Of a stretch of 64,000 bases of DNA, positions 31,231 through 62,506 are shown one piece after another. The stretch is from positions 795,548 through 859,547 of the forward strand of contig OY969569.1 in the NCBI GenBank assembly GCA_963701185.1, given 5' to 3'. Below the pieces are notes generated by a model. That model saw only the letters and a program-made list of their open reading frames with translations. It had not been told where the DNA came from and made no database searches. A program made the translations under genes and the position numbers. This DNA comes from Candidatus Gottesmanbacteria bacterium (lineage in GTDB: Bacteria > Patescibacteriota > Microgenomatia > UBA10105 > UBA927). Positions within the stretch are counted from its first letter, which is position 1. The number at the start of each line of letters is the position of its first letter.

Positions 31231-33273
31231 CTATTTTCTCCCCGTGGTTATCGCCGTTGCCGGACACGCCTTTGTGCATCCTGACACATTTGATACACAG
31301 CCGTTAATCGCTTCGGGCGACAGCTTTGGGTTCCCGGTGGGCACAAAATCCAGAACGTTGCCGCCCGAAAGTACGCCAAAGTGCAGATGGGTGCCTGTGG
31401 AGTTTCCCGTCTGATCCATCCACCCCAACTGCGCGTGCGCGTCAACGTGTTGTCCTGCCCGTACCGCAATGGCACTCTCCAGATGGCCAAAAATGAGCGT
31501 GTACCCATCGTCTGTTTTTAGAATAACATGATTGCCGTACCCTGCATATGCCGGGCTTCCGCCGCATGTGTTGCCGGGGCGCCCGGAATTGTTTGAACAC
31601 CCCCCATAGGCCTCAATGACGGTTCCTGCCCTCGGTGTGTAGACGGGGCCTCCGGAAAAACTGGCAATATCAATGCCGTTTGCCGCCGATCCCGCCGCAT
31701 GTGATGTTCTGGCGGTACAATGTGCCGCAGTGCGCGGCCCCTGGGAAATGTAGCCGCTTGCCGGCCAGCGGCAATCGCCGGAACAGGCAGTAAACTTGCA
31801 CTGCGGATTATCGGGCGTCAGTTGGCAATTGACGACTGGGCCGCCCTCCATGCCGCCCTCGGCGCTTGTGGCAATCGACGTGTCGATCATGGACTGGTTA
31901 AATGCGGGGAGATTTAAGAGGGGGAATATCGGAAGGAAGAAAACAAGGACAACGCCCGCCCCGACAACAAGAATCAGGTTGTCTTCGGGGTTTTTGCTGT
32001 TGCCCATAAACAGAAGGCTTTTGAAGACGGAGACGGCTTTATTAACCGCCCCTTTGAGAAGATCCGCCCCGATCATTATCAATGCGCCCACGCCGCCCGT
32101 GGCGGCCCCGGTAGCCGCCTCCAATCCCAGTTTTGTTACCCCGCTGACCGCCGCCTTTTTTACCCCTGCCTTAATTCCTGCCCGTATGGCATAATTGGCG
32201 CCCGTCCAAACGAGCCGCCGGCCGTAACCCAGGACGACCGGACTGTAACAAGGGATATTGCCCACAACGACCCCCTGCGATGCGACGAGCCGGTATGTTT
32301 CGATATAGGTAATGACGCGTTCGGTTGCCGGACCGCGGAACACCGTTGTGGCGACATCGGAAACGAGGGCGGTAAATTTGGATGTAACTTTTAGCGCGCT
32401 TTTCTGGTCGCTCATCATGCGGTTGGCGTCAGTCTGCAGCGCCGTAAACCAGGAAGAATTTACAAAATCTGCCCCCCACCTGTCCGTCATCGTTCCCATG
32501 ACGGTTTGCGGCAGCGCCTCGGGGTGATTGACAATAGTAGTCAGCGGCTGCAGGAGAATTTTATTGACGACCGCTTCTTTGGCGGCGAGGGGTACGACAG
32601 CGTCCAGCACGGACGCAACACTTTTTTGAAAATCATTGGACGCAAGTATGGAAAAAGATTGTGGGGGCGGAAATGTGCCGGCGGGGGAGGAGAGAACCTT
32701 CGCAGCCTCAGTTGCTTCAACCGCGCGGGGAACGAGCTCTTTGATTTCGCGGTCCGGCTGTTCGGAAGCAAACGAAGCCAGCGCGTGAAAAACGAGCGCT
32801 TTTTCTTCCGGCGGCCCGGGGTAACGGATCGCGGCGCTGATGGCGCCCTGTATCCGCTCCGGTGATACCGGAGCGCCCTCCCGTTCCGGCGGCACGGGCG
32901 CCCGCATTTCGGGGAGCGGTCCATTTGATTTTTTTGCGTTTTCTTTTAGCGCCTCAACGAATTTTTTTGACGCCGTTGCCGCATTGACCCTTTGCTCTTT
33001 TGCCGCGGCAAACTCGCGGTCAAACTCCTCAACCAGTTCGTTAATCTTGGGGTTGATATTTCGCTGGATCCCGTCGGTTTCAGCGGCCGGCATTGTTATT
33101 TCAAAAAAGCGCAGGAACGCCTCGGTTGGCTCTCTGAGAAAAGGCCACGATCCAAAAGGGTTTGCCTCCGGATATTTATTAAAAAACCCTTCAAGCGTTT
33201 CCGGATCCTCCTGGAGCTTCAGCAAGCACCCGAGCGCCCGTTCGATTTCTTGTGATGATGCAAATTCTGCCAT
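31231..33273 (-). CDS. T4SS-associated membrane protein with a C-terminal M23 (lysostaphin-type) peptidoglycan peptidase domain
   Basis: About 420-aa N-terminal region, a TM (LILVVGAGVVLVFFLPIFPLL), then an M23 domain ('PRAGTVIEAYGG...GYGNHVILKTDDGYTLIFGHL...GNSTGTHLHFGV') with the HxH zinc motif. Confidence 0.65.
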   Translation of the reverse strand: MAEFASSQEIERALGCLLKLQEDPETLEGFFNKYPEANPFGSWPFLREPTEAFLRFFEITMPAAETDGIQRNINPKINELVEEFDREFAAAKEQRVNAATASKKFVEALKENAKKSNGPLPEMRAPVPPEREGAPVSPERIQGAISAAIRYPGPPEEKALVFHALASFASEQPDREIKELVPRAVEATEAAKVLSSPAGTFPPPQSFSILASNDFQKSVASVLDAVVPLAAKEAVVNKILLQPLTTIVNHPEALPQTVMGTMTDRWGADFVNSSWFTALQTDANRMMSDQKSALKVTSKFTALVSDVATTVFRGPATERVITYIETYRLVASQGVVVGNIPCYSPVVLGYGRRLVWTGANYAIRAGIKAGVKKAAVSGVTKLGLEAATGAATGGVGALIMIGADLLKGAVNKAVSVFKSLLFMGNSKNPEDNLILVVGAGVVLVFFLPIFPLLNLPAFNQSMIDTSIATSAEGGMEGGPVVNCQLTPDNPQCKFTACSGDCRWPASGYISQGPRTAAHCTARTSHAAGSAANGIDIASFSGGPVYTPRAGTVIEAYGGCSNNSGRPGNTCGGSPAYAGYGNHVILKTDDGYTLIFGHLESAIAVRAGQHVDAHAQLGWMDQTGNSTGTHLHFGVLSGGNVLDFVPTGNPKLSPEAINGCVSNVSGCTKACPATAITTGRK

Positions 33274-33277
33274 AGCC

Positions 33278-35176
33278 TTATACCTTTTCTACGGTAAATA
33301 TCGGGCGGGAGCTTTTATCTTCTTCGGTTATCATGGTTGGTTTTTCCTGCGGCGCGGTAGCCTTTATCTGAACCTGTTTTTCTAATTCCTGTGGTTTAGT
33401 TGTGGCAAGCGCGTGTTCTTCAGGTGAAGAAATGACCCTAATGGCCGCGTGGGCCGGTCCGGCAAAAAACAACCCCTCGCCGATATCGGCAGACAAGAGA
33501 AGGTGCTGTTCCCCCTCGGAGAGATAGAAGACATCAGCGACCTTGTCGATGGCGGCGGACGACTGTTTAAGCAGTATCTGAACACTGCTGTTTTGAATGA
33601 TGGATTTTCCGAGGTCAACGGTTAAAAAATCTTCGACATCCTGAGTAATGGTCGTGAGACCGAGATAATATTTGCGCGCTCGTTTGGCAATAGAATTGAG
33701 GAATGCCCCGGAATCAGGATATTTCATCATGTACCACGCCTCGTCAACGATGAGGATCCGGCGTTTGGCGTCGCGGCGTATTTTGGTCCAGATATAGTCA
33801 AGGATAAGGTACATGGCGATGGGCCGCAGCTCATCCTCCAAATCCCGGATGGAGAATACCGTGAGCTGGTTTCGTATTTCCACGTTGGTCTGCCGGTCAA
33901 AAATCCCGACCAGACTCCCTTTGACGAATTTTTCTATGCGGTCGGCAAGACCCCGCGCAGTCGGATCTTCCATACCGGTAAGGGCTTTATACAAATCTTC
34001 CATGAGCGGCGGCTCGCGGGTCTGGGTGGCGGGATCCGGCGTAATGCCTTTTTGTTTGTAGGTAAGGATCAGGGCCCGGTCAAGGAGGGCATCTTCCGTG
34101 GGAGTGAGCTTTCCCATGACAACGCGGAAAAATCCGTGCAGGGACAATATCTTTTGGTTGAGCTCGCTTTCCCCCCCTGCGCCTTTCGTTTGGGTGAACA
34201 AAGACAGGTCAAACGGATTGATTTTTGTCGTTGAGCCGAAGTGGAAGCGGATGTATTCGCCGCCTAAGGCGTGGGAGAGTGATTCGTATTCTGATTCCGG
34301 ATCGATGACGATGACCTCCGTGTCGAACATAAGACTGCGCATAATTTCCAGTTTCACCATGTACGATTTTCCAGAACCGGATTTTCCGAAGACCACCGTA
34401 TTTGCATTCTCTAAGGTAAACCGGTCAAAAATAACAAGGCTGTCATTATGTTCGTTGATGCCGTACAGAACCCCTTCATTGGCGGTGAGCTCCGATGTCG
34501 TAAACGGAAATGTGGTGGCAAGGGACGTGGTATCCATATTCCTGGTGATAACGAGCCGGTCGCGCCCCATGGGGAGCGTCGTTTTGAAGCCTTCCTCCAT
34601 CTGCAGGATTGCGCGCTTGGTGATAATCAGAAGAGCCGCAAGGGCGGCTTCAACCTGTTTTGTCGTTTTATTGAGGTCCTCCAGATTTTTGGCAGGGACC
34701 GTGATATACAGGGCAAACTGAAAAAAGCGCTGGGAGCCCTTGGCCAGCTCCTGCTGGAGAGATACCGCATCTTCAAGCGCGACTTGAATGGAGGGCTCTG
34801 TTGCCCTTCCGCGCTTCATGTCCGACTGGATTGTGGCCTCCATTTCGCCGACCCTGCGCTTGAGGTTTTCCAACACCTCTTCGCTTTTAGTGGGATAGAC
34901 ATACATGGCAATATCCAGCGTGTGATTGAAAGAAATAAGCGGCTCCAGCCAATTGGCGGATACAAACCGCGGATACCCGGCAACGAAGAGCGTGCGGAAA
35001 TACCGGTCGCCGATTTTTATCGTATCAAAATCCACTTCAATTGCCGGCGGGGCGACGAGGTCTTTTATGGTCATGGGGCCCTGCCTGTCGGCAGGCAGGC
35101 CGCCGTCTCCGGTCGAGGCGGGCATGGGATTGATGAATTTTTTCACTGCAGATTGTACGCGTTTGGTTAGATCCAT
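33278..35176 (-). CDS. virB4: type IV secretion system ATPase VirB4/TraC/TrbE family
   Basis: Walker A 'VVFGKSGSGKSYMVK', Walker B 'ILIVDEAWYMM', 'LGLTTITQDVEDF'. About 630 aa, consistent with Gram-positive/CPR-type VirB4. Confidence 0.8.
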   Translation of the reverse strand: MDLTKRVQSAVKKFINPMPASTGDGGLPADRQGPMTIKDLVAPPAIEVDFDTIKIGDRYFRTLFVAGYPRFVSANWLEPLISFNHTLDIAMYVYPTKSEEVLENLKRRVGEMEATIQSDMKRGRATEPSIQVALEDAVSLQQELAKGSQRFFQFALYITVPAKNLEDLNKTTKQVEAALAALLIITKRAILQMEEGFKTTLPMGRDRLVITRNMDTTSLATTFPFTTSELTANEGVLYGINEHNDSLVIFDRFTLENANTVVFGKSGSGKSYMVKLEIMRSLMFDTEVIVIDPESEYESLSHALGGEYIRFHFGSTTKINPFDLSLFTQTKGAGGESELNQKILSLHGFFRVVMGKLTPTEDALLDRALILTYKQKGITPDPATQTREPPLMEDLYKALTGMEDPTARGLADRIEKFVKGSLVGIFDRQTNVEIRNQLTVFSIRDLEDELRPIAMYLILDYIWTKIRRDAKRRILIVDEAWYMMKYPDSGAFLNSIAKRARKYYLGLTTITQDVEDFLTVDLGKSIIQNSSVQILLKQSSAAIDKVADVFYLSEGEQHLLLSADIGEGLFFAGPAHAAIRVISSPEEHALATTKPQELEKQVQIKATAPQEKPTMITEEDKSSRPIFTVEKV

Positions 35177-35180
35177 AGGT

Positions 35181-35840
35181 TTAGGTTCCCACCGCCTTTT
35201 CGATATTTTCAGCGCTCACAATCGGCGCGCCCTGGTTATAGATTTCGTAAAACAGCCGCACGAGCCGCTCATTGGTTAATTGTTTTGCCGAGAGACCTAT
35301 GCGGTTGCAAAGCCGTATGATTTGGTCCCCTTTGGGGGTAAGGACAATTATGGCCCGTTCGAAAATATAGGGCCTCGGGTACGGGAGGCCCCGCCTTTTG
35401 GACCCGCCAAGAAGCACGTTGGCGCTTGCCCCCAGCTCCAGATATGAAAACGGTACGACAATATAAAACTTTTTATCCAGCACATCTTTCTCCTTGACGG
35501 TGGCCGCCACAAACAGGCGGTATCCGTGCATGGCAGCGGCAAGCTTCGGATTTTTTTGCGTTTTTTCCCTGTCCTCCAGCGTCCGGAGGTATGCCGTCAC
35601 GTCTTTGTGTTGGGTGCGGATCAAAATTTCAATCGGGAAGGAGAGCGAATTTAACAGACCCGCGTACGCGTAAATAATTGCATCCTGTTCCTTTTCGGAT
35701 AGCAATCCGAAATTAACCGCGGTCGCGGATATAACCATGGAGCAGGAGCCGTCGGCGTACATGACCAGACCATGGTCAATGGTTTCTATTTCCGTGAATA
35801 GCTGTGTTGAGGATCTGATGGGTACGATTGGGTCAGGCAT
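35181..35840 (-). CDS. hypothetical T4SS-operon protein
   Basis: ORF 35181..36053 trimmed to Met72 (MPDPIVPIRS) so it does not overlap the upstream gene ending at 35851. Located between the PrgI-like and VirB4 genes. Confidence 0.4.
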   Translation of the reverse strand: MPDPIVPIRSSTQLFTEIETIDHGLVMYADGSCSMVISATAVNFGLLSEKEQDAIIYAYAGLLNSLSFPIEILIRTQHKDVTAYLRTLEDREKTQKNPKLAAAMHGYRLFVAATVKEKDVLDKKFYIVVPFSYLELGASANVLLGGSKRRGLPYPRPYIFERAIIVLTPKGDQIIRLCNRIGLSAKQLTNERLVRLFYEIYNQGAPIVSAENIEKAVGT

Positions 35841-35850
35841 ATGGGTATAA

Positions 35851-37044
35851 CTATGTCGGTGCCCCGAACAATTCCTTCTCAAGCTTTGCCCGCGTGATTT
35901 CTTTTTCGGTTTTTGCAAAAATCTCAAGCGCCGGTACGATCGACCCGTTGAGGGTGATCTGGGCGCGGTCAAAGGTAAAGCGAAGCCGGGGGTCTTCCGT
36001 TTCCACAAAATAGATGCCGTTGGGAAGCTGGGTGGACGCCGCAAACTGGCCAAGGCGGTTGGTTTTGAGGGCCCGCAGCGGCATGCCGTCTTTGTCTTTT
36101 ACTGTTACCAGGACGCCGGGCAGCAAATTTTTGTCTTTGTCTTTGACGATTCCGGTGACGATGTTGGGAAATGTCGTGAGGCGTGGTAATCCCACTTTTG
36201 CCGCGCGTCCGGGACCTATGACCTGAATGGTGGGCATCTTCGCCTGCCCGGCGGGTGTTTGCGTAACGGTAGTAGTGGGAGGGTTATATTCAGGAGGGCT
36301 TTGAAGCGAACGGAGTTTGGCGAGTTCCGCCATCATCTTTTCCTGTTCGGCCAAGAGCTCGGTTAGCTGGGCCTGCAGTTCCGCGACACGCGATTCCGCC
36401 GCGGTTTTACTCTCCAATTCCGAGGTGAGTTTTTTGAGTTTGTCTTCCAGGGCTGATTCTTTTTGCTGGGTCTCTGTAAGCTCTTTTGAAACATTTGGTG
36501 CGGGTCTTACAATAGGCGGCGGAGAAAGGTCCATGTGCGGCACCGGCGCCGTCTTGGGTTTGGGCGCCCACAAATCGGCAAGCCGATCAGCGATGCCCTT
36601 TTTGGGAGCAGATACAGTTACGACGCCGGCAGTAGTAGCCGGCGGCGAAGGAACAAAAATATTCTGCAAAATATCTCCCTTTCGGGTTGGGGGAGATGCC
36701 GGGGCGGTTTGTGTTTTTTCCGGCACTGCGGGCCGGGGATTCTCGGTTTTTGGCCGGCTCCAGACATACTGCGTTGGGTTATAAATACTCTTGATAAACG
36801 AAAGGACCCATACATCCATAGGGCGTTCCTCAATCGGCACAAACGCGAGCCCGAATCCGGCAACCGCACTGGTGACCGCCAGCGGCAGGGTAATGAAAAA
36901 CGGCAAGGGCAGCTTGTACATGATGTAGGCTCCAATCGCTCCTCCGACCAAATACCCGAATTGTTTGAGGGTCATGTCGCCGATGAGGCGGAATTGAAAT
37001 GTCGTAACGTTTTGCGGGACAGGATGTTGTTCCATATATAACAA
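35851..37044 (-). CDS. PrgI/VirB3-like T4SS membrane protein with an extended Pro-rich/coiled-coil C-terminal region
   Basis: N-terminal 'FQFRLIGDMTLKQFGYLVGGAIGAYIMYKLPLPFFITLPLAVTSAVAGFGLAFVPIEERPMDVWV' is a PrgI-like two-TM module. Pro/Ala-rich linker, coiled coil, then a C-terminal globular part. Confidence 0.5.
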   Translation of the reverse strand: MLYMEQHPVPQNVTTFQFRLIGDMTLKQFGYLVGGAIGAYIMYKLPLPFFITLPLAVTSAVAGFGLAFVPIEERPMDVWVLSFIKSIYNPTQYVWSRPKTENPRPAVPEKTQTAPASPPTRKGDILQNIFVPSPPATTAGVVTVSAPKKGIADRLADLWAPKPKTAPVPHMDLSPPPIVRPAPNVSKELTETQQKESALEDKLKKLTSELESKTAAESRVAELQAQLTELLAEQEKMMAELAKLRSLQSPPEYNPPTTTVTQTPAGQAKMPTIQVIGPGRAAKVGLPRLTTFPNIVTGIVKDKDKNLLPGVLVTVKDKDGMPLRALKTNRLGQFAASTQLPNGIYFVETEDPRLRFTFDRAQITLNGSIVPALEIFAKTEKEITRAKLEKELFGAPT

Positions 37045-37190
37045 ACGACGAGCGTCGCTATAGTAATTATTCTAAAAGGTAATTTTGCATGGCGCAATAG
37101 TGCAAAGCGCATCAGGACCGTGAAAACTGAAAATTTTTCCGTGAAAATTTTCATCCCGAGCGAAGTCGAAGGATATGCTACAATGAGCGT

Positions 37191-37754
37191 ATGAAAATCG
37201 GAATTCTCGGCGGTTCGTTTGATCCGCCGCACTTCGGACACCTTCTTCTGGCCCGGCAGACGAGAGAAATTATGGGCTTGGATGAAATTTGGCTTATGCC
37301 GTATTTTGCTCACAGTTGGGACCCGACTCTCTCGCCGGCCGCAGACCGGCTTGCGATGGCCAAACTTATCGAAGAACCCGGCATTGTGGTGTCGGAGGAG
37401 GAAATAGGAGAGAGGACGACAAACTACACCATCGATACCGTCCGCCGGCTGAAAACCAAGAACCACCATACATTTTCTTGGATTGTCGGCAGCGATATTT
37501 TGGAGGAATTTGAGCGGTGGCGCGACCACGATGCGCTTTCGGAGGAAGTGCCGTTTCTCGTATTTCCGCGAAACGGATACCCGACGTCCTCGGCTCTCCC
37601 GCCGGGATTCACACTCATTGATTCTCCCGACATCATTACGTCAAACATTTCCTCCACGATCGTACGGAAGCGCCTGCAGCAGTCGCATTCGGTGGTCGGG
37701 CTCATTCCTGCCGATGTGCTCGCCTACATTCATGAGCACGGACTGTATAAATAA
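37191..37754 (+). CDS. nadD: nicotinate-nucleotide adenylyltransferase
   Basis: 'MKIGILGGSFDPPHFGHLLLA' is the (H/T)xGH nucleotidyltransferase motif. About 190 aa. Confidence 0.85.
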   Translation: MKIGILGGSFDPPHFGHLLLARQTREIMGLDEIWLMPYFAHSWDPTLSPAADRLAMAKLIEEPGIVVSEEEIGERTTNYTIDTVRRLKTKNHHTFSWIVGSDILEEFERWRDHDALSEEVPFLVFPRNGYPTSSALPPGFTLIDSPDIITSNISSTIVRKRLQQSHSVVGLIPADVLAYIHEHGLYK

Positions 37755-37793: not shown

Positions 37794-38549
37794 ATGAAAC
37801 TTATAGATCCGCAGCAGACGTCCGAACAATTGACCAACTTTTTGAAAACCAGTTTCGCGCGCGCAGGTTTTTCCAACGCCGTGATCGGGCTTTCCGGGGG
37901 CGTGGATTCGGCAACAAGCTGTATTCTGGCTATCCGGGCACTCGGCGCCGATCATGTGTATCCGGTGCTTTTGCCGTACGGCGTTCTCAGTACGCAGGCG
38001 ACGCTGGATGCCATGAGCGTCATCGAACTGCTCAAAATTTCTCCGTCGAATGTTACCCGCGTTGACATTAAACCCGTGATTGACCCCATAGCGCCGCAAG
38101 ACAATATTCGCCGGGGCAATATGATGGCACGAACCCGCATGATGATTTTGTTTGACCAGGCAAAGAAACGTGACGCTTTGGTAGTGGGGACGGAAAATAA
38201 AAGCGAGCATCTCCTGGGTTACTTTACCCGGTACGGAGACGAGGCAAGCGATATTGAGCCCTTGCGGAATCTCTACAAAACTCAGGTGTATGAATTGGCA
38301 AAATATCTGGGCGTGCCTGAGGCGATTCTCACCAAAAAGCCCACGGCGGGTCTGTGGGAAGGGCAGACGGACGAAGGAGAATTCGGATTTACCTACAAAG
38401 ACGCGGATGAGATTCTGTTTCTCTCATTCGACGAAAAAAAATCGGATGAGCAAATTATTGCCGCAGGATTTTTCAAAGAAATTGTGGAAAAAGTGCTGGC
38501 CCGCGTCCGCGCCAATGACTTCAAACACCATTTGCCAATAATCCTATAG
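37794..38549 (+). CDS. nadE: NH3-dependent NAD+ synthetase
   Basis: PP-loop 'GLSGGVDSATS' and 'VVGTENKSEHLLGYFTRYGDEASD'. Confidence 0.85.
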   Translation: MKLIDPQQTSEQLTNFLKTSFARAGFSNAVIGLSGGVDSATSCILAIRALGADHVYPVLLPYGVLSTQATLDAMSVIELLKISPSNVTRVDIKPVIDPIAPQDNIRRGNMMARTRMMILFDQAKKRDALVVGTENKSEHLLGYFTRYGDEASDIEPLRNLYKTQVYELAKYLGVPEAILTKKPTAGLWEGQTDEGEFGFTYKDADEILFLSFDEKKSDEQIIAAGFFKEIVEKVLARVRANDFKHHLPIIL

Positions 38550-38587
38550 TTTGACTTTTCTTTAAAAAAATGGTATAAATTTGAACC

Positions 38588-39268
38588 ATGTCTAGATCAG
38601 AAAATGGAAAAGGTGTAACACCAAAAGAAAACACTATTTGGTATCAATCTCTTCAAAGAGCGGGTCTTGCGTTACGAGAACGGCGAATAGACACAGCTCT
38701 GAACGAACTGGAGTTTGCGAGTAACAACCGTCCAACCCAAAACAAAGATGAGCTGCCCGGATTTTTCTATGACCCTCAATATTCAATGTGTATTCCACAT
38801 GGTGTAGTGGGACTAGCGTATACCGCCGTCACAATTTATCAAGATACAGATGCCGCATACAGAATTCTTAATTTTGTAGAGGAAAAATGGGATGAAAAGG
38901 GAACTGCACTTGAAGATACCTGGTTTGAATTATCGAAAGAAGCAATAAAACAGAAGAGGTTTGAAGATGCATCTGTTTTTTTCCGTCGAAGCAGAGATGC
39001 CCATCGAACCCAATATCAAGAGCGTATTCCGTTTTTTGAATTGTGGAATTATTGTCGGTCATATATAAGAAATTGGTATACTGACAGACAATATGCAGAT
39101 GCTGCAGGCGCACTTTTCATGGTTGCACGAAACGGTAAAGATCCAGAGGTAGGTATGATGGCCGAACGATTAGCAAGGAAATTATTAGATGGGGATGCTT
39201 GGGCGGATTGGGAGGGTTTTCACAAAGCTATACGAGAATTAGACAAGGCATTGGGCGCTCCATGGTAA
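38588..39268 (+). CDS. hypothetical protein (first gene of the AT-rich island)
   Basis: 226-aa ORF, AT-rich. No recognisable domain. Confidence 0.35.
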   Translation: MSRSENGKGVTPKENTIWYQSLQRAGLALRERRIDTALNELEFASNNRPTQNKDELPGFFYDPQYSMCIPHGVVGLAYTAVTIYQDTDAAYRILNFVEEKWDEKGTALEDTWFELSKEAIKQKRFEDASVFFRRSRDAHRTQYQERIPFFELWNYCRSYIRNWYTDRQYADAAGALFMVARNGKDPEVGMMAERLARKLLDGDAWADWEGFHKAIRELDKALGAPW

Positions 39269-39351
39269 AGTGATGATATTAAACGCCGCTTGGCAATACT
39301 ACTGTAATGTAACCTTCGTCTTGCGCCCCACCTCCCACTAGCGATACAATC

Positions 39352-42300
39352 GTGGTATCTATGGCAGAAACAGAGCCGCCACCAAAGAAGAATGTTGAGC
39401 AGGAGCAAAAACCTCAAGAACAGACCCCTGAAGATAAAGCAGCGGAGGAATTAGGCAAACGTGCCCAAAAATCAACGCGGTATGAACGTCATAAGATAAA
39501 AGAACAACGGGAGAGAGCCGAAAAAGTATTCGAAAAACTAAAAAAGGGTGAAGTTCCAAAACTTGATTTGGAAAAAATGTCCCCTGCGGATATCAAAGAA
39601 GCCAAATCTATTATCGCCGACATAGAACGCGCCCACGAACAAAAGTGGCTTACCAAAGGCGAAATTCCAGATAACCCAATTGTATTAGATGTTGTTGCCC
39701 GCATCGCCAGTGCGCCTCAAGAGCTTCAGGATGACCCGAAATGGCTTATTGCCCAGGGACTTGAACTGCGGGAAGCGCAAAAAGGAAGTATGCCTGATGA
39801 TGTAAAGATTGCCATACAAAAAGTGAGTTATAGAATAAGGAATAGGGTTACAGAATTAACAGGTATAAATGAAGAAGACCGGCATGCCATTTTTCGCTCT
39901 TCATTTGATCCCGCGAAACTTACCAGCGTAACCCCGGAGCAAGCGGAAGTTGTTGAGGTGGCAGAATTTTATTTAAGCGAGTCTGGAAGCCCGGTTCGGC
40001 GCGGGTCGGGAACGCCAGAATTAATTACCCCAAGCGATTGGCTTTACAAAGGACAAACGACGGGAAACGCAGCTCTGGATAAGAAATTGGAGGAAATTAA
40101 TAATAGATATGCGAATGAACCACAGGCAGAATATCTTCAAGAAGCGCATCGTGAGCTTAAAGATATGAAACTTGCCGAAGCAGAACCATATCTCAGAACA
40201 ATCGAAAACACTTATAAAATCATGTCCGATGAGCAATTTAGGTTAACCCCCGCGGAAATCGAGAAAATTAAAAATCCTGACACACGCGACGAGGTTTTTT
40301 ACCGACGCATAGAAAAAATTTTGAATAAACCAAATAAAACATCTCGGGAAAGCATGGATCTCTACACACAAACAGCATTGGACTCATTTACGTATGGTGT
40401 AAGCAGAATGGAAAATGGTCGAAATCTCGTCGCTCACTTTGAAAACCTGCAAGAAGCGATTTTTGCGTTTCATGATATTGACTTTTATGCACGCAGCGCC
40501 GCCGGAGATGTAAAACCGTTTGTTGAGGCAGCATCATATTTCCAAAATTCATTCGCAATAGAAGCCATTAATGACCCGCTTGTGGAAGTGAGCATTCAGA
40601 GCTACGAGCAGGCACTCAAGATGATTCGGGACAATAATGACGGGTATATACCGCCATCGATGGTAAGTTACGATACGAATACCTACCAGAATTATTGGGA
40701 TGAACTTGCAAAGAAAATTCTGATAGAGAAAATAAAGGCGGGTTTAGTTCACGATTATGATCGCGACCCAAAAACAGGAACTCCTCTGAAAAATAATGAT
40801 GGCACACGGCGGTTTAAAGATGAGGCAATGACACTTGAAGAGCTCGGTTTAGATCCAAAAAGTAAGCTGAGCGTTGAAGATCAGAGAAATAAAACATTAC
40901 GTCTTATTGCCTCCATGCGTATGGCAAAAGGATTTGGGATCCTCGACATGAGGCTTTTGGAAATTTTTGCATTCTCCAAAACCCCCGGGTATTCCAATCC
41001 AGAATACGGAACGCAAGGACTAATATTCAGCAGTAAAGCATATGAAGGAATCGCGCGTTGGTTAAATCCCATGGCTGATTGGTTTGGCAAATTTAAAATG
41101 GGAGACACCATGTTTGCTCCATTCTTTGCGACACTCATAGGAATAAAACACAATGATCTTAAGGAATTTTTCTCATGGGATCAGGACCAGTGGAAACGTA
41201 TCACCAATATGGCGGCCAACGGAGAATTACAGGAATGGCTCCGGAATAAATTTCCGAAAGGTGGCGGACGACTTCACGATCTTGTTTCAATGTTTGCATT
41301 TAGCGGACGTTTCGGGCCGTTGTCAAAATGGGGAGAGTCAGATGTCACTTTGGGTTTTACTGATTTAGATCGTGAACGGGAAGGCGGCTCAATGAGGCTA
41401 TTTAAGGCCTCAAGGTGGGCAGAAGAGGAAGCCAGAAATCATTTTGATCCGGATAAGAAACTAAAAGAGTCGGAATGGAGAGTCATGAAGAACTCTGAAG
41501 AAGTTAAGAAGAAAATAGACGAATATGAAAAAGCATATAAAATTCACGTGTGGGTACAGACCGTCATGCGTAATCCAACCGGAGTAGCAGGCCATGTGCG
41601 TATGCAGACGCCAGAGAAATCTGGGGAAGCGCCGCATACGTATCTATACGGCGATGTTCATAAGCATGGTAATGAAAGAATGGCACGACATCTCAGGAAT
41701 GTGGTTATCCAAGAAGTGCTTGGGAATGACTATATTGTCGAGGGAAGAATTTTATTAAACGGAGAAATTCAATATGAGCCTGTAGAGAATGAACGATCTC
41801 CTGACGCAGCTAAACTTAATAAGATGGCCCGTATAGAACTTTTGGAGCGGGATGTCATGACGATCCAGCAGGCAGCGCTCTGCGGCGGCAGCGACAACAG
41901 ACCACGGGATATAAAATTAGAAACAGACTCGAAGCGTATCGAGGGCGATGAAGTGATTGCAGGAGAAACCATTACGCAAGAAAAGCGTCGTGAAGATGCA
42001 AAACAATACATTACCCGCGTGCAGACATATATGTTGGGGAACAAATTGTCAGCAAAAGATTGGCAAAAAAAACTTGGGGGGGATTGGGATGATACATTGG
42101 ACAGAATTAAGATGGAAGATTACTCGTCGGATAGTGTGAGCGTTCCGGTCGGAAGCGGGAAAAGTAAATTAGTATTGAAGATTGTGGACACAATAACGGA
42201 GAAAAATCCCACTCCCGTAACTAAGATGCTCGCATCTGTTCGTGGCATAGATGAAGATGCCAAGGTAGACTATGGGAACCCGTTATTGTCGGAAGAGCTT

Positions 42301-42930
42301 TTGAAAGTGATTTCGCCTTCACATATGGGTCTTGAGGACGTGCAATGGCATTATATAGATATTGCTCCTTTGGGTGAGCGGCATTGGGCGAGACGAGCGA
42401 ACGATTTGCGGGCACGGTCAGAAACAGATGCGGCGCTGATAAAAAGTTTAGACACAATGCGCCCACACCCTGATCTTAAAGAGATCGGAAAAGCGCTTGA
42501 GGAAGTGTACAACGCAGAAAAACAGCACGATCCAAATGAGGCGCACAGGTTTGTGTATTTATGGTCGCGGGGAATGGGAGAGATGTACAGACAAAGATTT
42601 TGGGCGAAAATTCCTTTTCTTGGAAGACTTATTTCTCGAATGAATCCATCTTCTATTGCTGCGCAAGTGTATGGTCCCGAGCATGGAGCTTCGTGGAGTG
42701 CGAATAATGAGAGGGAATTTGTGGAAGCAGTCCAACAATCAACAAAACTACCATATCAGGAAATCGATAGGTTGGGAAATAAGCATACATATAACATACA
42801 TAGTTTGGAAAAAGAACTAGGTGCGACCCGGAGAGTCGTGATAATGGAAATGATCGGATTGGGGGTGTTTATTGCGATTGCGGCAACGATATTGGCAGCG
42901 GGCACAAAATCGCTGGAAGATAAAGATTAA
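39352..42930 (+). CDS. giant hypothetical protein (1192 aa) with a C-terminal TM anchor
   Basis: Single uninterrupted ORF, highly charged (K/E/D/R-rich). No P-loop or other signature found. C-terminal hydrophobic helix 'VVIMEMIGLGVFIAIAATILAAG'. Its A+T content is above the surrounding core genes. Confidence 0.55.
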   Translation: MVSMAETEPPPKKNVEQEQKPQEQTPEDKAAEELGKRAQKSTRYERHKIKEQRERAEKVFEKLKKGEVPKLDLEKMSPADIKEAKSIIADIERAHEQKWLTKGEIPDNPIVLDVVARIASAPQELQDDPKWLIAQGLELREAQKGSMPDDVKIAIQKVSYRIRNRVTELTGINEEDRHAIFRSSFDPAKLTSVTPEQAEVVEVAEFYLSESGSPVRRGSGTPELITPSDWLYKGQTTGNAALDKKLEEINNRYANEPQAEYLQEAHRELKDMKLAEAEPYLRTIENTYKIMSDEQFRLTPAEIEKIKNPDTRDEVFYRRIEKILNKPNKTSRESMDLYTQTALDSFTYGVSRMENGRNLVAHFENLQEAIFAFHDIDFYARSAAGDVKPFVEAASYFQNSFAIEAINDPLVEVSIQSYEQALKMIRDNNDGYIPPSMVSYDTNTYQNYWDELAKKILIEKIKAGLVHDYDRDPKTGTPLKNNDGTRRFKDEAMTLEELGLDPKSKLSVEDQRNKTLRLIASMRMAKGFGILDMRLLEIFAFSKTPGYSNPEYGTQGLIFSSKAYEGIARWLNPMADWFGKFKMGDTMFAPFFATLIGIKHNDLKEFFSWDQDQWKRITNMAANGELQEWLRNKFPKGGGRLHDLVSMFAFSGRFGPLSKWGESDVTLGFTDLDREREGGSMRLFKASRWAEEEARNHFDPDKKLKESEWRVMKNSEEVKKKIDEYEKAYKIHVWVQTVMRNPTGVAGHVRMQTPEKSGEAPHTYLYGDVHKHGNERMARHLRNVVIQEVLGNDYIVEGRILLNGEIQYEPVENERSPDAAKLNKMARIELLERDVMTIQQAALCGGSDNRPRDIKLETDSKRIEGDEVIAGETITQEKRREDAKQYITRVQTYMLGNKLSAKDWQKKLGGDWDDTLDRIKMEDYSSDSVSVPVGSGKSKLVLKIVDTITEKNPTPVTKMLASVRGIDEDAKVDYGNPLLSEELLKVISPSHMGLEDVQWHYIDIAPLGERHWARRANDLRARSETDAALIKSLDTMRPHPDLKEIGKALEEVYNAEKQHDPNEAHRFVYLWSRGMGEMYRQRFWAKIPFLGRLISRMNPSSIAAQVYGPEHGASWSANNEREFVEAVQQSTKLPYQEIDRLGNKHTYNIHSLEKELGATRRVVIMEMIGLGVFIAIAATILAAGTKSLEDKD

Positions 42931-42933
42931 ATA

Positions 42934-44418
42934 TTATGGATGGCTTCCGCCACCCCCTCCCTTTCCCTTATTTATCCATTTTCCTACCTGACTGACCATT
43001 GCTGAGCCATAGTAAAACTGGGATGCGGTTCCCATAGTGGTTTGAACAGCGCCGCCCAAGGGTGAGAATATTGCGCTGGGGCCAGCACTGACCATAGGTT
43101 TGGCCTTGAGCGCCTCTTTCAGTGCCTTACCAATCGAAGGAATGGCAAATAGAATGCCCAGTGAGATAAGTGTTGAGAGTGACGTCGTGTTGAATGAGAT
43201 CGCCGATAAATTTGGAGCCCAAAGTGATTTATGGGTGTCGGCAAAGTTCGCAAATACCGCCGCAAGCATGAAGAAAACAACACCAAGCGGAAACACAGCA
43301 ATATTTGCTATAAGATTATTGATCCACGACCCGAATGAGTTGGTTCCTGGAATTGCTTCCATCAGGATTTGTACCGGGCCAAAGAGAAGTGCAAGTACGA
43401 TTTGAATGTATGCTCCGACGAAAAAGATGAGGAGACGTATAAACAAAAATAGCATGGCAAGGGATAGAATGAATTCCAAAACAGGCATCGAAAGAGCGGC
43501 AATTCCTCCTGCTACTACCATCGGGCCGGCTACCCCCGCTGAAATTGCCGTAATGGCAACCGCCGGAACAATCAACAATGCTCCGAGACCTAGCCCTGCA
43601 AGCAATTCCGTTCCGACCCCTACGGGTATGCCCAATATTTTTAAAACGCTCACGTTCCAAGTCGCCTGGATGGTGTTAGCAGCCAAGGTTCCCTGTGTAA
43701 AGAATTTCAGCTGTGTATCTAGCCCCCAGATGTTCCAGATACTAGGGACTGCCGGTAACAGTCCTGAAGAAACAAATAAACCTACGGCAAGATACATGAT
43801 CAAATACATGACGTCTATGAGAAGCCCGACAATAGCATATGAGAATGTTATAAGAAGGAGGGTAAGTACAATTCTCGGGAGGGCATTCTGGACGGTGACG
43901 ACGGTTTTTGGATCTATTTTTTTTCGGAACATGACCATGAATCCGATGACGATCATAACAACGGCCATAAGAAAGTAGGCGATGTTTCTGAATATTTTCC
44001 AGAGAGGTAGAAGAGCAGAGAATCCGGAAAATCCAATGCCTTGAGCGTGTACCTGTTTAGGAAAAAAGCCAAGAGATTGACCGGTATCTTCTACCCAGTA
44101 GGCAATGCTTGAGGGTGGCGTCGTATAGACGCCCGCTATAACGCCGCTTATAAGGGTTAACGAGCTTTTACCGTAATAAAATGCGCTGTTTGGATCTTTG
44201 CTGCAGCCGGCAATCATGCAGGTTGCCGTGTTCATGTACGAGGCCTGGGTATTGACGGTATAGACCTCTTTACTCATCTGCCCCGCTTTGGATTTCTGGT
44301 CCACGATTGCGCCAAACTCTTCGGCGCTTGGCATCGGATTAAACTCCGCGTGTGCGGGCGGCACAAAGACCAATCCGACGAGAATGAAGATGAGAAATAA
44401 AAACGCGGCGTGCTTCAT
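42934..44418 (-). CDS. VirB6/TrbL-like polytopic T4SS membrane protein
   Basis: Signal peptide plus a periplasmic N-domain, then 7 or more TM helices. Encoded immediately downstream of six VirB2-like pilin genes, in the VirB6 position. Confidence 0.5.
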   Translation of the reverse strand: MKHAAFLFLIFILVGLVFVPPAHAEFNPMPSAEEFGAIVDQKSKAGQMSKEVYTVNTQASYMNTATCMIAGCSKDPNSAFYYGKSSLTLISGVIAGVYTTPPSSIAYWVEDTGQSLGFFPKQVHAQGIGFSGFSALLPLWKIFRNIAYFLMAVVMIVIGFMVMFRKKIDPKTVVTVQNALPRIVLTLLLITFSYAIVGLLIDVMYLIMYLAVGLFVSSGLLPAVPSIWNIWGLDTQLKFFTQGTLAANTIQATWNVSVLKILGIPVGVGTELLAGLGLGALLIVPAVAITAISAGVAGPMVVAGGIAALSMPVLEFILSLAMLFLFIRLLIFFVGAYIQIVLALLFGPVQILMEAIPGTNSFGSWINNLIANIAVFPLGVVFFMLAAVFANFADTHKSLWAPNLSAISFNTTSLSTLISLGILFAIPSIGKALKEALKAKPMVSAGPSAIFSPLGGAVQTTMGTASQFYYGSAMVSQVGKWINKGKGGGGGSHP

Positions 44419-47616: not shown

Positions 47617-48234
47617 ATGGAGACATCGCTTATTGTCGCGCTTGTTGATTTTAGCAGAAATATTATAGGATTAATTATCCGTCCGTATGAAACGTGCCGC
47701 AGGATCGTGGAAAAAGAAAACCCGTTGGAACTGATTTATGTTGCGGTAGTGCTTGCCGTATATTTTGTCCTCGCGTCTTTGGTTAAGGTTGCCAGCTTCC
47801 GTCCGTTTCTTCTGACCCGGCAGTTTTTTGTGTTGGCGGGTGCGGTAGCTATTACGTATTGTTTTGTCGTGACGGTATTCTGGGTGGTAGGGAGATTGGT
47901 GGGCGCAGGCGGGAAAATGAAAGGCCTTGCGGTCCTCTGGGGGTATTCGCTGCTGCCTACGACACTCTGGTTTTTCGTCACATCTCTCCTCTATGTTTTG
48001 TTGCCTCCGCCGCGGACCACAAGCATTCAGGGGATTCTTTTCAGCGTATTCTTCCTCGTGTTTTCCATTACGCTGTTTTTGTGGAAGGCAACGATTACCT
48101 ATTTGTCTCTCCGCTTCGGACTCAAGGTGGATTTAGGAAAAATTTTGGTTATTTTGGCGATATCACTTCCGGTTCTTGCGTTATACAGTTACGGCATGTA
48201 TAGACTCGGAATCTTTAAAATACCGTTTATATGA
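47617..48234 (+). CDS. polytopic membrane protein (Yip1-like topology)
   Basis: 205 aa with five predicted TM helices. Stop overlaps the HMGR start (ATGA). Confidence 0.4.
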   Translation: METSLIVALVDFSRNIIGLIIRPYETCRRIVEKENPLELIYVAVVLAVYFVLASLVKVASFRPFLLTRQFFVLAGAVAITYCFVVTVFWVVGRLVGAGGKMKGLAVLWGYSLLPTTLWFFVTSLLYVLLPPPRTTSIQGILFSVFFLVFSITLFLWKATITYLSLRFGLKVDLGKILVILAISLPVLALYSYGMYRLGIFKIPFI

Positions 48235-49370
48235 ACCTACGTGATTACACAAGCGTTTTGGAACGAAGGAAAGCGATTGAGAAAGAACGGAACGTTGATC
48301 TTACGCATATCGGTGCCTTCACGCTGGATGAGACTGTTGCCGTCACACGAAACTGCGAAAACATGATTGGCGCAGTACAGATTCCGATGGGAATTGCCGG
48401 GCCGCTTCGCATTGCCAAAAAAGAATATTATCTGCCGCTTGCGACCACGGAAGGTGCGCTCGTGGCGTCCGTGAACCGCGGATGCAGGGCAATAACCGAA
48501 TCAGGAGGGGCATTTGTCCGAAGTAAACGCGTGGGTGCTACGCGCGGGCCTGTATTTCGTGTTGAGTCTATGCGGGACCAAGTAGTTTTCAGTGATTTTC
48601 TTAAAAAGAATTTTAAGGATTTGAAAAATATTGCTCAGTCAACATCAGGTCACATAACGCTTCTCAGTGCTCATTCACGGGCCGTTGGAAGATATCGCTA
48701 CGTACGTTTTGTTTTTGACACACAGGACGCCATGGGCATGAACATGGCAACAATCGCGGCGCAAAAACTTGTTGCGTTTATTGAATTAAAAACCACGGCC
48801 CGCTGCGTTTCCGTGGCAGGGAATTATGACATAGACAAAAAACCCGCCTGGGTGAATGTTATTGAAGGCCGCGGTACAAAAGCATGGGCGGAAGTGACAA
48901 TTTCCGACAGAATTTTAAGGAGAATATTGAAAACCACCGCGCAAAAAATATATGATGTGTGGCTTGCAAAATGTATGATCGGGTCTGCCATGAGCGGCTC
49001 GATGGGATTCAATGCTCAGTATGCAAATGTAATCGCTGCACTTTTTATTGCTACAGGCCAGGATCCCGCACATGTTGTTGAGGGAAGTTTGGGGATAACA
49101 ACGGTGGAGGTTATTGACGGAAAAAATCTATACATGAGCGTCTATCTTCCTGATTTGATGGTCGGGACTGTCGGAGGAGGAACCGGACTTGCGACACAAC
49201 GGGAAGCGCTATCGATGATTGGCGCAAAAACGAGTCAAGAGTTTTCGGAAATTATCGCCGGAGCAGTGCTGGCGGGGGAGATTTCGTTACTCGCATCATT
49301 AAGCGAAGGAACGTTAGCACGGGCACACCAAAAATTGGCGCGCGGAAAAGTATTAAGTACTAAATACTAA
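48231..49370 (+). CDS. hmgA: hydroxymethylglutaryl-CoA reductase (class I-like)
   Basis: 'DAMGMNMATIAAQK' is a class I signature. 'AGNYDIDKKPAWVNVIEGRGTKAWAEV' and 'IGTVGGGTGLATQ'. Confidence 0.8.
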   Translation: MNLRDYTSVLERRKAIEKERNVDLTHIGAFTLDETVAVTRNCENMIGAVQIPMGIAGPLRIAKKEYYLPLATTEGALVASVNRGCRAITESGGAFVRSKRVGATRGPVFRVESMRDQVVFSDFLKKNFKDLKNIAQSTSGHITLLSAHSRAVGRYRYVRFVFDTQDAMGMNMATIAAQKLVAFIELKTTARCVSVAGNYDIDKKPAWVNVIEGRGTKAWAEVTISDRILRRILKTTAQKIYDVWLAKCMIGSAMSGSMGFNAQYANVIAALFIATGQDPAHVVEGSLGITTVEVIDGKNLYMSVYLPDLMVGTVGGGTGLATQREALSMIGAKTSQEFSEIIAGAVLAGEISLLASLSEGTLARAHQKLARGKVLSTKY

Positions 49371-49405
49371 GTATTAATTAAAACTTAGCACTTAGAATTT
49401 AAACT

Positions 49406-50455
49406 ATGGTCGGCATTGTTAGTTACGGAACATACATACCGCAGTATCGGATTAAGCTGGCCGATATCGCCGCGGCGTGGAAAAAAGATCCGCAGGAAGT
49501 CGTCGGGTCGCTCGGGATTGAAGAGAAATCGGTTCCGGGGACTGATGAGGATGCCGTATCGATAGCGCTGGAAGCGGCATGGAATAGCCTGTCGGCATTC
49601 AACGGAAAACCGGCGGACATAGAAGCACTCTTCGTCGGGAGCGAAAGCCATCCGTATGCTGTGAACCCGACATCAACGATTGTCGGAGAGTTATTGGGAG
49701 CCGGACATAACTATTTGGCAGCGGATTTGGAATTTGCCTGCAAGGCCGCAACGGCGGGCGTGCAGGCGGCTGCCGGACTTATCAGCGCGGGACACGCGCG
49801 TTATGGTTTAGTCATCGGAGCGGATACTGCCCAAAGCAAGCCGCATGATGCCCTGGAGTATACCTCGGCGGCGGCAGGGGCCGCATATCTGCTGTCGGGA
49901 GAGAAGCAAGAGATTGTTGCTAAACTTCTGGCTTATACCTCGTATTCTTCCGATACGCCGGATTTCTGGAGACGGGACGGCATCCGGTATCCCTCCCACG
50001 CAGGGCGATTTACCGGCGAACCCGCATATTTTGCCCACGTACTTGGCGCGGCAGCCAGACTCTTTGCCCAGTGTCATATGAAACCGGAGGATTTTGATTA
50101 TTGCGTATTCCATATGCCCAACGGCAAGTTCCCGCGCGACGCGGCGCGCCGTCTGGGATTTAGTAAAGAGCAATTGTCAACGTCTCTTATCGTTGATTAT
50201 ATCGGCAATCCGTACTCCGCCTCTGCCATGCTCGGCCTTGCGGCGGTCCTGGATATTGCACGGCCGGGTGAAAAAATATGTATGGTGTCGTATGGCTCCG
50301 GCGCGGGCTCGGATGCGTTTGTATGGGAAACGACGCCGCTCTTGCCGCGCATGCAGAAGATCCGCGGAAAGCAGCAGAGCTTGGTAACCCAGCAGATAGT
50401 AAAAAAACAGTATGTGGATTACGTCGGCTATTTGAAGCAGACACACAAGATTTAA
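49406..50455 (+). CDS. hydroxymethylglutaryl-CoA synthase, archaeal-type (thiolase-fold condensing enzyme)
   Basis: 'MVGIVSYGTYIPQYRIKLADIAAAW', catalytic Cys context 'LEFACKAATAG'. About 350 aa. Co-located with a thiolase and a DUF35 protein, as in the archaeal HMGS/thiolase/DUF35 complex. Confidence 0.75.
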   Translation: MVGIVSYGTYIPQYRIKLADIAAAWKKDPQEVVGSLGIEEKSVPGTDEDAVSIALEAAWNSLSAFNGKPADIEALFVGSESHPYAVNPTSTIVGELLGAGHNYLAADLEFACKAATAGVQAAAGLISAGHARYGLVIGADTAQSKPHDALEYTSAAAGAAYLLSGEKQEIVAKLLAYTSYSSDTPDFWRRDGIRYPSHAGRFTGEPAYFAHVLGAAARLFAQCHMKPEDFDYCVFHMPNGKFPRDAARRLGFSKEQLSTSLIVDYIGNPYSASAMLGLAAVLDIARPGEKICMVSYGSGAGSDAFVWETTPLLPRMQKIRGKQQSLVTQQIVKKQYVDYVGYLKQTHKI

Positions 50456-50512
50456 TTTGAAAATTAAGAAAATAAAAATTGATTAAAAATTGAAAATTTT
50501 AAATTAAAAATT

Positions 50513-62504: not shown

Positions 62505-62506
62505 AT

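Follow-up and report, generated by a model that had tools for sequence, protein, structure and literature searches.

Southlakia epibionticum's type IV secretion system (T4SS), encoded by the cluster SEML1_0006-0019, is essential for epibiotic growth (PMC10633639; PMC12102498). Two of its products, the 998-amino-acid (aa) domain-less protein SEML1_0011 and the 1088-aa extended VirB6 SEML1_0013, carry ARM-like helical domains (PMC10633639). The parts of patescibacterial T4SSs named in the literature are VirB1/2/3/4/6/8-like proteins, TrsD, the type IV coupling protein (T4CP) and a few MPF-FATA-specific proteins, and VirB6 is scarcely detected in Microgenomatia. Here we describe a 64-kb stretch of contig OY969569.1 from a Candidatus Gottesmanbacteria bacterium (hereafter the window, at its full length), in which a T4SS locus near dnaA includes a gene for a domain-less protein of 1189 aa (hereafter the giant gene and the giant protein). 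No giant component is mentioned in the patescibacterial T4SS literature just summarized, and none is listed in a published survey of Patescibacteria T4SSs. Our tentative interpretation is that the giant protein serves the Microgenomates T4SS as a cytoplasmic subunit tethered to the membrane and acting together with a VirB6-like protein. What is new is a T4SS with an undescribed, lineage-specific giant partner protein, the predicted fold of which has no detected relative.

Organization of the T4SS locus

Like the MPF-FATA-like cluster of Southlakia, the T4SS of the window is chromosomal and adjoins dnaA and dnaN, and the two have in common a cell-wall hydrolase, VirB4, a TrsD-like protein, PrgI, VirB6 and an array of six pilins. 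Southlakia likewise has proteins of about 1000 aa, without Pfam matches and with ARM-like helical regions, between PrgI and the pilins, a likeness by description. Unlike in Southlakia, the VirB6-like protein of the window is short (494 aa) and the helical mass forms a separate tail-anchored protein encoded on the opposite strand. A chromosomal, dnaA-proximal T4SS with a pilin array is the kind described for Patescibacteria (PMC12102498; PMC10633639).

The gene order starts with dnaA, dnaN and a gene for a 331-aa protein, and the T4SS genes follow. A minus-strand arm encodes an M23 peptidase, VirB4, a TrsD/TraC-like protein and the VirB3-like PrgI. The plus-strand middle part consists of nadD, nadE, an open reading frame (ORF) of 226 aa and the giant gene. 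A second minus-strand arm carries a polytopic VirB6-like gene and six pilin-like genes, and beyond it lies a gene for an extracytoplasmic function (ECF) sigma factor. A first-pass annotation, made by a model from the letters alone, had taken the segment 38588-42930 for an island between two T4SS loci. Both arms belong to one locus, and the giant gene stands at a constant position in every related locus examined. The first four genes below were assigned by Pfam and NCBIfam matches and gene calls, and nadD and nadE, housekeeping genes within the T4SS locus, by Pfam.

31231-33273, minus strand: M23 peptidase
33278-35176, minus strand: VirB4
35181-35840, minus strand: TrsD/TraC-like protein
35851-37044, minus strand: PrgI/VirB3-like protein
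37191-37754, plus strand: nadD
37794-38549, plus strand: nadE
38588-39268, plus strand: 226-aa accessory ORF, in a variable slot directly upstream of the giant gene
39361-42930, plus strand: giant gene (ORF), 1189 aa, 136 kDa
42934-44418, minus strand: VirB6-like polytopic membrane protein, 494 aa
44458-46711, minus strand: array of six small T4SS pilin-like genes, with a PF18895 match for the first gene

The longest ORF of the giant gene (39352-42930) encodes 1192 aa from a GTG codon, and both this ORF and the 226-aa ORF are present as the first-pass annotation claimed. We set the start at the ATG at 39361, which is supported both by gene calls made in public assemblies and by an alignment of homologues at their N-termini. 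Orthologues of the pilin-like genes in L001, L003 and L006 bear T4SS_pilin matches (loci of relatives are labelled L001, L003 and so on, and proteins of the giant family P0006, P0065 and so on).

In a scan of GTDB genomes, the closest relatives of VirB4 were found in metagenome-assembled genomes of Candidatus Gottesmanbacteria, and the next ones in other Microgenomates (Woese-, Curtiss-, Shapiro- and Beckwithbacteria). Among the GTDB records with Gottesmanbacteria-type T4SS loci (VirB4 63-84% identical; L013-L089), many bear the title 'uncultured Gammaproteobacteria bacterium', and 'Bathyarchaeia archaeon' and 'Clostridia bacterium' occur on single records; such labels are evidently placeholders or wrong. 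The VirB4 gene of L001 (L001:1-2333, 1224-aa product) is split by an intein with a LAGLIDADG homing endonuclease, and that of the window has no intein.

Between PrgI and nadD (37044-37191) the window has no coupling-protein gene (VirD4-like, DUF8128/TrwB), and no homologue of a coupling protein was found anywhere in the 64 kb. Most relatives hold such a gene at this place (L001:4266-6443, L003:5906-8101, L007:7782-9983), and L011 and L049 likewise have none in the locus.

Conservation of the giant gene and its VirB6-like partner

A word-indexed protein search returned only seven relatives of the giant protein (40-54% identity). An exhaustive profile search detected 146 clusters at 50% identity (E ≤ 1e-3), 62 of them with E ≤ 1e-30 and nearly all of 900-1350 aa, and a scan of GTDB genomes and IMG/VR for the giant family gave no match. 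By these profile matches, the giant gene is no orphan but belongs to a Gottesmanbacteria-wide family. Of the earlier description as a 1192-aa orphan, the lack of domains thus stands and the orphan status does not.

The giant gene lies between the coupling-protein or nadD-nadE side and a convergent VirB6-like gene in L001, L003, L006, L007, L011, L012, L017 and L049. In L001, L003, L006 and L007 it is downstream of the coupling-protein gene (DUF8128/DUF87/TrwB), and the gap to the VirB6-like gene is 3-120 nucleotides (nt). In L007, L033 and L044 it directly follows the coupling-protein gene with gaps of 3-38 nt; since this is so and the content of the interval varies between loci, the giant gene is a resident of the T4SS locus, with nadD, nadE and small cargo as variable insertions. 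A large ORF (≥ 900 aa) occupies the slot in every Gottesmanbacteria-like GTDB locus whose flank reaches it, and the family profile picks up 25 of them. In distant members at about 20% identity (P0065, P0075 and P0096) a VirB6-like homologue is still convergent (E 1e-60 to 1e-69, gaps of 12-31 nt), and most Microgenomates loci in which the VirB6-like gene is visible have a convergent ORF of at least 900 aa after it. No paralogue of the giant gene was found within the window. Synteny across relatives, which the first-pass annotation had named as speaking against its island, was thus found for the giant gene, though without a housekeeping homologue.

Curtissbacteria-like loci (L057, L058, L059, L068, L070, L071 and L088) have another protein family at this slot, also convergent with the VirB6-like gene, of 1100-1460 aa, with about 31-33% charged residues and no known domains. 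These proteins were rejected as members of the giant family (hhalign probability 0.2; none recruited by local profile iteration), and several other lineages likewise carry slot ORFs that neither hhalign nor profile iteration links to it. A Pfam domain was found in 0 of 14 positional equivalents of the giant protein.

In the window, the giant gene and the VirB6-like gene stand tail to tail with a 3-nt gap. The VirB6-like protein has no Pfam match, its assignment as VirB6 being by topology and position only. Across seven divergent orthologues, D202 and R328 (...LFLFIRLLIFF...) are invariant charged residues buried in its hydrophobic helices. An intramembrane salt bridge between R328 and E1163 of the giant protein was considered and dropped, because giant types without an acidic helix residue coexist with R328. 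In many loci the VirB6-like proteins (window 42934-42975) and the giant proteins (L027, L030, L036, L039, L040 and others) end alike, in poly-Gly followed by His, for example ...KGKGGGGGSHP, ...EEEGKSGGGGGAHH and ...TGGGGH; GGG occurs within the last 25 residues in 15 of 39 VirB6-like C-termini.

Features and predicted structure of the giant protein

The giant protein has an isoelectric point of 5.85 and one Cys, and 31% of its residues are K, R, D or E. In a Kyte-Doolittle scan the only hydrophobic segment lies at about aa 1157-1180, and the N-terminus has nothing that resembles a signal. A motif scan gave no Walker A, HExxH or GxSxG and no internal repeats. The earlier picture of a highly charged, motif-less protein with one C-terminal transmembrane anchor is borne out by these data. 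The protein has zero matches in Pfam, NCBIfam, PHROGs and PADLOC (in PADLOC none at E ≤ 0.1), PDB sequence searches with the single protein and with an 86-sequence profile returned only low-complexity helical noise, and a Pfam search of 43 family members gave nothing meaningful. No relaxase domain (HUH, Rep_trans, endonuclease-like or other) was found with Pfam, and the structural model is nearly all-helical.

Two other identities were considered. That of an HD-phosphohydrolase was dropped, as the 'HD' at residue 371 is not conserved (S in P0006). That of a polymorphic toxin does not fit either: the variable part spans about 1000 aa with homology between the types, conservation in the C-terminal third is among the highest of the protein, and no ORF lies downstream of the giant gene, where a polymorphic toxin would have its immunity gene, but only the short gap to the VirB6-like gene.

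AlphaFold predicts a compact, almost entirely alpha-helical protein with a predicted local distance difference test score (pLDDT) of 85.7 and a predicted template modelling score (pTM) of 0.78; a run with only 7 sequences gave a pLDDT of 49.5 and was unusable. In Foldseek searches with the model of pLDDT 85.7, the best matches had E-values of 0.036 (PDB) and 0.033 (BFVD) with TM-scores of about 0.1, which is noise. The structure search that the first-pass annotation had proposed therefore yielded a confident all-alpha model and no fold match in PDB or BFVD. In an alignment of 86 sequences, column information delimits three conserved cores, which are followed by the hydrophobic helix:

40201-40740, plus strand: conserved core 1, aa 281-460, with the motif IRDNNDGYIPP
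40921-41400, plus strand: conserved core 2, aa 521-680, with the motifs MAKGxGIL, FSGRFGPLSxWGE and REREGGSMRL
42361-42720, plus strand: conserved core 3, aa 1001-1120
42829-42900, plus strand: C-terminal hydrophobic helix (Kyte-Doolittle), about aa 1157-1180, with a 9-residue acidic tail after it

Over these sequences D993 is invariant, and near-invariant residues are F313, F343 and E416 (core 1), G524, W657, P739, G1005, R1011, D1015 and S1098. The motif TEDVQW..D...LG.R.W.RR.ND near core 3 contains D993, G1005, R1011 and D1015. Conservation also peaks in the C-terminal helix, and the most variable parts are the first 280 residues and aa 681-1000.

A tail-anchored protein has a single hydrophobic segment within its last 65-70 residues (PMC12981334). 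By this definition the giant protein is tail-anchored, with one C-terminal hydrophobic segment, no signal peptide and no other transmembrane segment. Among the 86 family members, 80 have one hydrophobic helix within the last 55 residues and only one has another strongly hydrophobic segment. Inside the helix, E1163 and G1168 are invariant in 7- and 18-sequence alignments, which would be expected for a helix that packs against a partner and not for a passive anchor. In the type of the window, RR precedes the helix and the acidic tail TKSLEDKD follows it; the positive-inside rule therefore predicts that about 1150 aa are on the cytoplasmic side. The tail after the helix has 3-26 residues across the family. 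The extreme C-terminus is Glu-rich (EE..) in many members, often followed by GGGGHH, and the same rule puts it outside the membrane. The first-pass annotation had proposed a T4SS-associated surface or effector protein; the association with the T4SS is upheld, and a surface location is not supported by the missing signal peptide and the predicted cytoplasmic domain.

Divergent types and cassette replacement

The giant protein of the window is 54, 48 and 43% identical to those of L006, L003 and L007, and the VirB6-like protein is 55, 47 and 39% identical. Identity of the giant protein thus tracks that of its neighbour, and therefore the allele of the window looks vertically inherited. A different pattern was seen with L001, where the flanks are 72-90% identical (VirB6-like protein 83%, pilins 75-85%, nadE 78%) and the giant protein only 42%. 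The giant proteins of L001 and the window form a mosaic, with 60-90% protein identity over the first ~215 codons and 14-48% over the remaining ~1000 residues. DNA homology to L001 is lost at 38530-39320 and again at 40006-42993. In the closest public relative, L011, the locus architecture is the same, VirB4 is 88-92% identical and DnaN 90%. Here BLASTP cannot align the two giant proteins, and a link between them (E 3e-12, collinear) is given by the unfiltered family profile alone; identity of the VirB6-like proteins is 56-88% up to residue 200 and 12-51% thereafter. The blastn comparisons delimit the following tracts:

39361-40005, plus strand: N-terminal ~215 codons of the giant gene, orthologous to L001 (78.7% DNA identity; ratio of nonsynonymous to synonymous substitution rates, dN/dS, 0.115)
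40006-42930, plus strand: body of the giant gene, the swapped part, without DNA homology to L001 (flanks 75-84% identical)
38541-43795, no strand: tract without DNA homology to L011, which takes in the 226-aa ORF, the entire giant gene and ~290 C-terminal codons of the VirB6-like gene

Pairs of close relatives show either conservation or replacement of the giant protein:

L019 and L021: VirB4 92%, coupling protein 95%, giant protein 52% identity
L027 and L030: VirB4 95%, coupling protein 96%, giant protein 96% identity
L036 and L039: VirB4 90%, coupling protein 86%, giant protein 88% identity

Between L027 and L030, dN/dS is 0.016 for the giant gene, 0.012 for the coupling protein and 0.015 for VirB4, and among L036, L038 and L039 the dN of the giant gene equals that of both ATPases. 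Within a type, the giant protein is as constrained as VirB4 and the coupling ATPase.

These patterns suggest that the giant gene exists as several ancient, very divergent types, each strongly constrained by purifying selection. One type would occasionally be swapped for another through homologous recombination in the conserved flanks, and such a swap would sometimes take the C-terminal half of the VirB6-like gene along. The AT-rich composition described below would belong to this swappable cassette. Horizontal exchange does occur at this locus, as replacement of a resident allele by a divergent type and not as gain of a new gene. Of the horizontal acquisition proposed earlier, such a replacement and the sporadic 226-aa ORF are what remains.

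Base composition and the variable slot

The GC content of 38588-42930 is 0.436, against 0.494 for the remaining window, and is the lowest among all 4343-bp sliding windows (0.5% at or below). GC content at third codon positions (GC3) is 0.405 in the giant gene and 0.304 in the 226-aa ORF, and about 0.58-0.62 in nadD, nadE, VirB4 and PrgI. The root-mean-square distance in codon usage to 27 pooled genes of the window is 0.149 for the giant gene and 0.231 for the 226-aa ORF (other window genes: mean 0.119, standard deviation 0.033, maximum 0.184). The AT-rich break reported by the first-pass annotation is therefore real, and the sliding-window and codon-usage check that it had suggested found a composition that is not uniform. 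In 19 of 22 loci the giant gene has a lower GC3 than VirB4 (mean difference -0.08, range -0.26 to +0.02), and the difference is about zero in the clade whose giant gene is inherited in step with its neighbours. Since the AT shift is also found in the orthologues of L001, L003 and L006, it is a recurrent property of the cassette and not the mark of a recent foreign insertion. At the segment there is no integrase, no flanking direct repeat of the island type and no adjacent tRNA, and a promoter and terminator scan gave counts no higher than in shuffled sequence. Other low-GC ORFs (GC 0.34-0.40, GC3 0.28-0.41) are scattered in the window at 15821-17029 (minus strand), 22472-23062 (minus strand), 83-769 (plus strand) and 62277-62881 (plus strand), and these may be further variable or acquired genes.

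Across 22 loci compared, the interval from the coupling-protein gene to the giant gene holds nothing, nadD alone, nadD and nadE, or these plus small cargo of several kinds (AbiEii, MNT/HepT, HEPN, a PaaX-like gene and a 23S-IVS protein). L001 has AbiEii and MNT/HepT modules, L045 has a HEPN gene and L015 has a PaaX-like gene. The 226-aa ORF is absent from L001, L003, L006, L007, L011 and L012. It has no match in Pfam, NCBIfam, PHROGs or PADLOC, and a word-indexed search of 5.8 billion proteins returned only the ORF itself. That result is no proof of orphan status, because L013 (VirB4 82%) has a homologue of 226 aa (L013:3117-3794; 45% identical, E 6e-62) at the same position, directly upstream of a giant gene of a different type. 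The 226-aa ORF is a real, sporadic accessory or cargo gene of the variable slot. Upstream of it (38551-38580), TTGACT, 17 nt and then TGGTATAAA can be read directly from the sequence. This element resembles a sigma-70 promoter whose -10 box is extended; the stricter rule of the promoter tool did not list it.

Possible roles of the giant protein

The giant protein would be made in the cytoplasm without a signal peptide, and its C-terminal helix would insert post-translationally with the N-terminus inside and the short acidic tail outside. On the cytoplasmic side of the membrane this would leave about 1150 residues as a compact all-alpha domain, which may work there with the VirB6-like polytopic protein and, where present, the coupling ATPase encoded just upstream. 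The giant protein could thus be a cytoplasmic platform of the translocon, that is, the large hydrophilic domain of an 'extended VirB6' as a separate polypeptide. The data show the membership in the locus, the conserved pairing, the architecture, the strength of selection and the pattern of replacement, whereas we infer this topology, the physical interaction and the platform role; a component of the machine is preferred because, in the related loci examined, the slot is always occupied, the gene is in single copy and the pairing with the VirB6-like gene outlasts sequence similarity. It is also preferred because constraint within a type equals that on VirB4, the tail anchor has conserved polar residues in its helix, and the VirB6-like gene was partially co-replaced in the comparison with L011. 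The reading is put forward tentatively, since no homology was found and ancient types that can be exchanged would be unusual in an internal subunit.

Large hydrophilic domains of unknown role are a feature of extended VirB6 proteins (PMC12857230). Like these TraG-type proteins, the locus combines a polytopic VirB6 module with a large hydrophilic domain, and the tract swapped relative to L011 spans both genes. Unlike in extended VirB6, there are two polypeptides, the large domain is anchored by itself and would, by prediction, lie in the cytoplasm, and no sequence similarity was detected. The giant protein is not itself an extended VirB6, as it has a single hydrophobic helix and the polytopic protein is encoded separately on the other strand. 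TssL/DotU is a tail-anchored, alpha-helical subunit of secretion machines (PMC3426401), and this protein (IcmH) of the type VI and type IVB systems resembles the giant protein in having an alpha-helical cytoplasmic domain held by a single C-terminal helix. However, TssL/DotU proteins have about 200 aa and not 1189 aa, show no detected homology and no type polymorphism. In the Dot/Icm coupling complex (DotL with DotM, DotN, DotY and DotZ), membrane-anchored cytoplasmic proteins beside the coupling ATPase form a substrate-docking cavity (PMC12981334). The position of the giant gene directly downstream of the coupling-protein gene in several relatives recalls this complex, but there is no homology, and the giant gene is kept in loci without a nearby coupling-protein gene.

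Several points weigh against a T4SS subunit. Searches of Pfam, NCBIfam, PDB and BFVD detected no homology or fold similarity of the giant protein to a known T4SS subunit (VirB1-11, VirD4, PrgF, TrsJ and others). Deeply divergent, exchangeable types are not expected of a strictly cytoplasmic structural part, yet window and L011 have VirB4 proteins of 92% identity and giant proteins that BLAST cannot align, and the giant proteins of L019 and L021 share only 52%. The comparison with L001 shows a giant gene with a replaced body beside a VirB6-like protein that is still 83% identical; therefore, tight co-adaptation of the two is not obligatory. The coupling-protein gene is missing from the locus in the window, L011 and L049. 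Gene neighbourhood alone cannot tell a subunit from a dedicated substrate, and the predicted topology comes from the positive-inside rule only.

The giant protein could instead be a dedicated translocated effector, like CagA or the transmembrane effectors of Legionella. It would be recognized at the membrane and driven into the host bacterium, where the C-terminal helix would anchor it, with the types as adaptations to different hosts. This is the main alternative, which we rank somewhat below the subunit. With transmembrane effectors of Legionella that have an E-block signal (PMC12981334) and with in-locus giant effectors such as CagA, the giant protein shares a size of about 130 kDa, a helical make-up, the lack of relatives of known fold, a gene in the T4SS locus and allelic types. 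In L007, L033 and L044 the giant gene, itself part of the T4SS locus, immediately follows the coupling-protein gene, its product has no known domain and no fold match, as is often the case for effectors, and its discrete, very divergent types are swapped between close relatives. Its composition deviates, GC3 being lower than in VirB4 at 19 of 22 loci. The Glu-rich C-terminus of many members recalls the E-block signal. About one third of T4SS effectors bear transmembrane segments (PMC12981334), and the patescibacterial T4SSs, being without relaxases, are thought to move proteins (PMC12102498; PMC10633639). However, the helix of the giant protein is at the extreme C-terminus, and the predicted orientation would leave a tail of 3-26 residues outside, beyond the reach of a cytoplasmic receptor, whereas known transmembrane effectors mostly retain long cytoplasmic C-terminal tails (PMC12981334). 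Unlike CagA, the Legionella effectors and effector repertoires in general, the giant gene is present in single copy, at the same slot in every related locus covered, with a within-type dN/dS as low as that of the ATPases. It also persists in loci without a coupling-protein gene, and no chaperone-like or immunity-like gene adjoins it, the VirB6-like gene following after 3 nt.

A bolder view, which we consider unlikely, is that the giant protein is the missing specificity element of the patescibacterial T4SS, either the substrate itself or a substrate-selecting receptor, with a fold that has no solved relative, and that cassette-like switching between ancient types would re-tune the choice of host bacteria open to a Gottesmanbacteria lineage. 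Improbable in our view is a resident cytoplasmic conflict protein, that is, an anti-phage or anti-plasmid defence or exclusion factor guarding entry and exit through the T4SS, with type diversity driven by an arms race with mobile elements. Type polymorphism with strong constraint within types is like that of specificity loci, toxin-antitoxin and Abi genes adjoin the giant gene in several loci, and the protein would be tethered to the membrane beside a conduit for DNA or protein. On the other hand, PADLOC has no defence-system profile match to it, there is no nuclease, ATPase or protease motif, and defence genes are typically patchy whereas the giant gene was present at its slot throughout the related loci examined and goes together with the VirB6-like gene. 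The least probable explanation is that 38.6-42.9 kb is a recently acquired foreign island of phage, plasmid or defence cargo that lies in the T4SS region by chance. The lowest GC of the window, the deviant codon usage, the AbiEii, MNT/HepT, HEPN and PaaX-like genes between nadE and the giant gene (L001, L045, L015) and the sporadic 226-aa ORF would agree with it. It is largely refuted for the giant gene by synteny, as the gene occupies the same position in all related loci examined and diverges as its VirB6-like neighbour does (L006, L003 and L007). The AT shift is common to the orthologues, the segment has no integrase, direct repeats or adjacent tRNA, and only the 0.8-kb segment of the 226-aa ORF behaves as cargo. 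The phage or defence cargo suggested by the first-pass annotation is not supported by PHROGs, PADLOC or IMG/VR, none of which gave a match.

Other features of the window

Beyond the T4SS locus lie mevalonate-pathway genes (48231-51658, plus strand: HMG-CoA reductase, HMG-CoA synthase-like and thiolase), which are syntenic in all relatives and were named after their orthologues in L001 and L003 that have Pfam annotations. A full-length transfer-messenger RNA was detected at 61773-62185 (plus strand) by Rfam with 105.6 bits; ARAGORN did not report it. Adjoining dnaA, an 893-aa protein (24846-27527, plus strand) has weak, split SecA DEAD-like and P-loop matches (E ~1e-11) and may be a divergent or insertion-bearing SecA.

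Implications for patescibacterial T4SSs

In the one Patescibacterium that is genetically tractable, epibiotic growth requires the T4SS (PMC10633639; PMC12102498). Its substrates and cytoplasmic architecture in Patescibacteria are not known, and a relaxase is absent (PMC10633639; PMC12102498). The giant protein is a concrete, testable candidate from Microgenomates, a domain-less protein of about 130 kDa with a constant VirB6-like partner, encoded by the most exchangeable part of a conserved locus. Inventories of T4SSs based on hidden Markov models miss this conserved component. The giant protein could guide co-folding, the interpretation of cryo-electron tomography and studies of host range.

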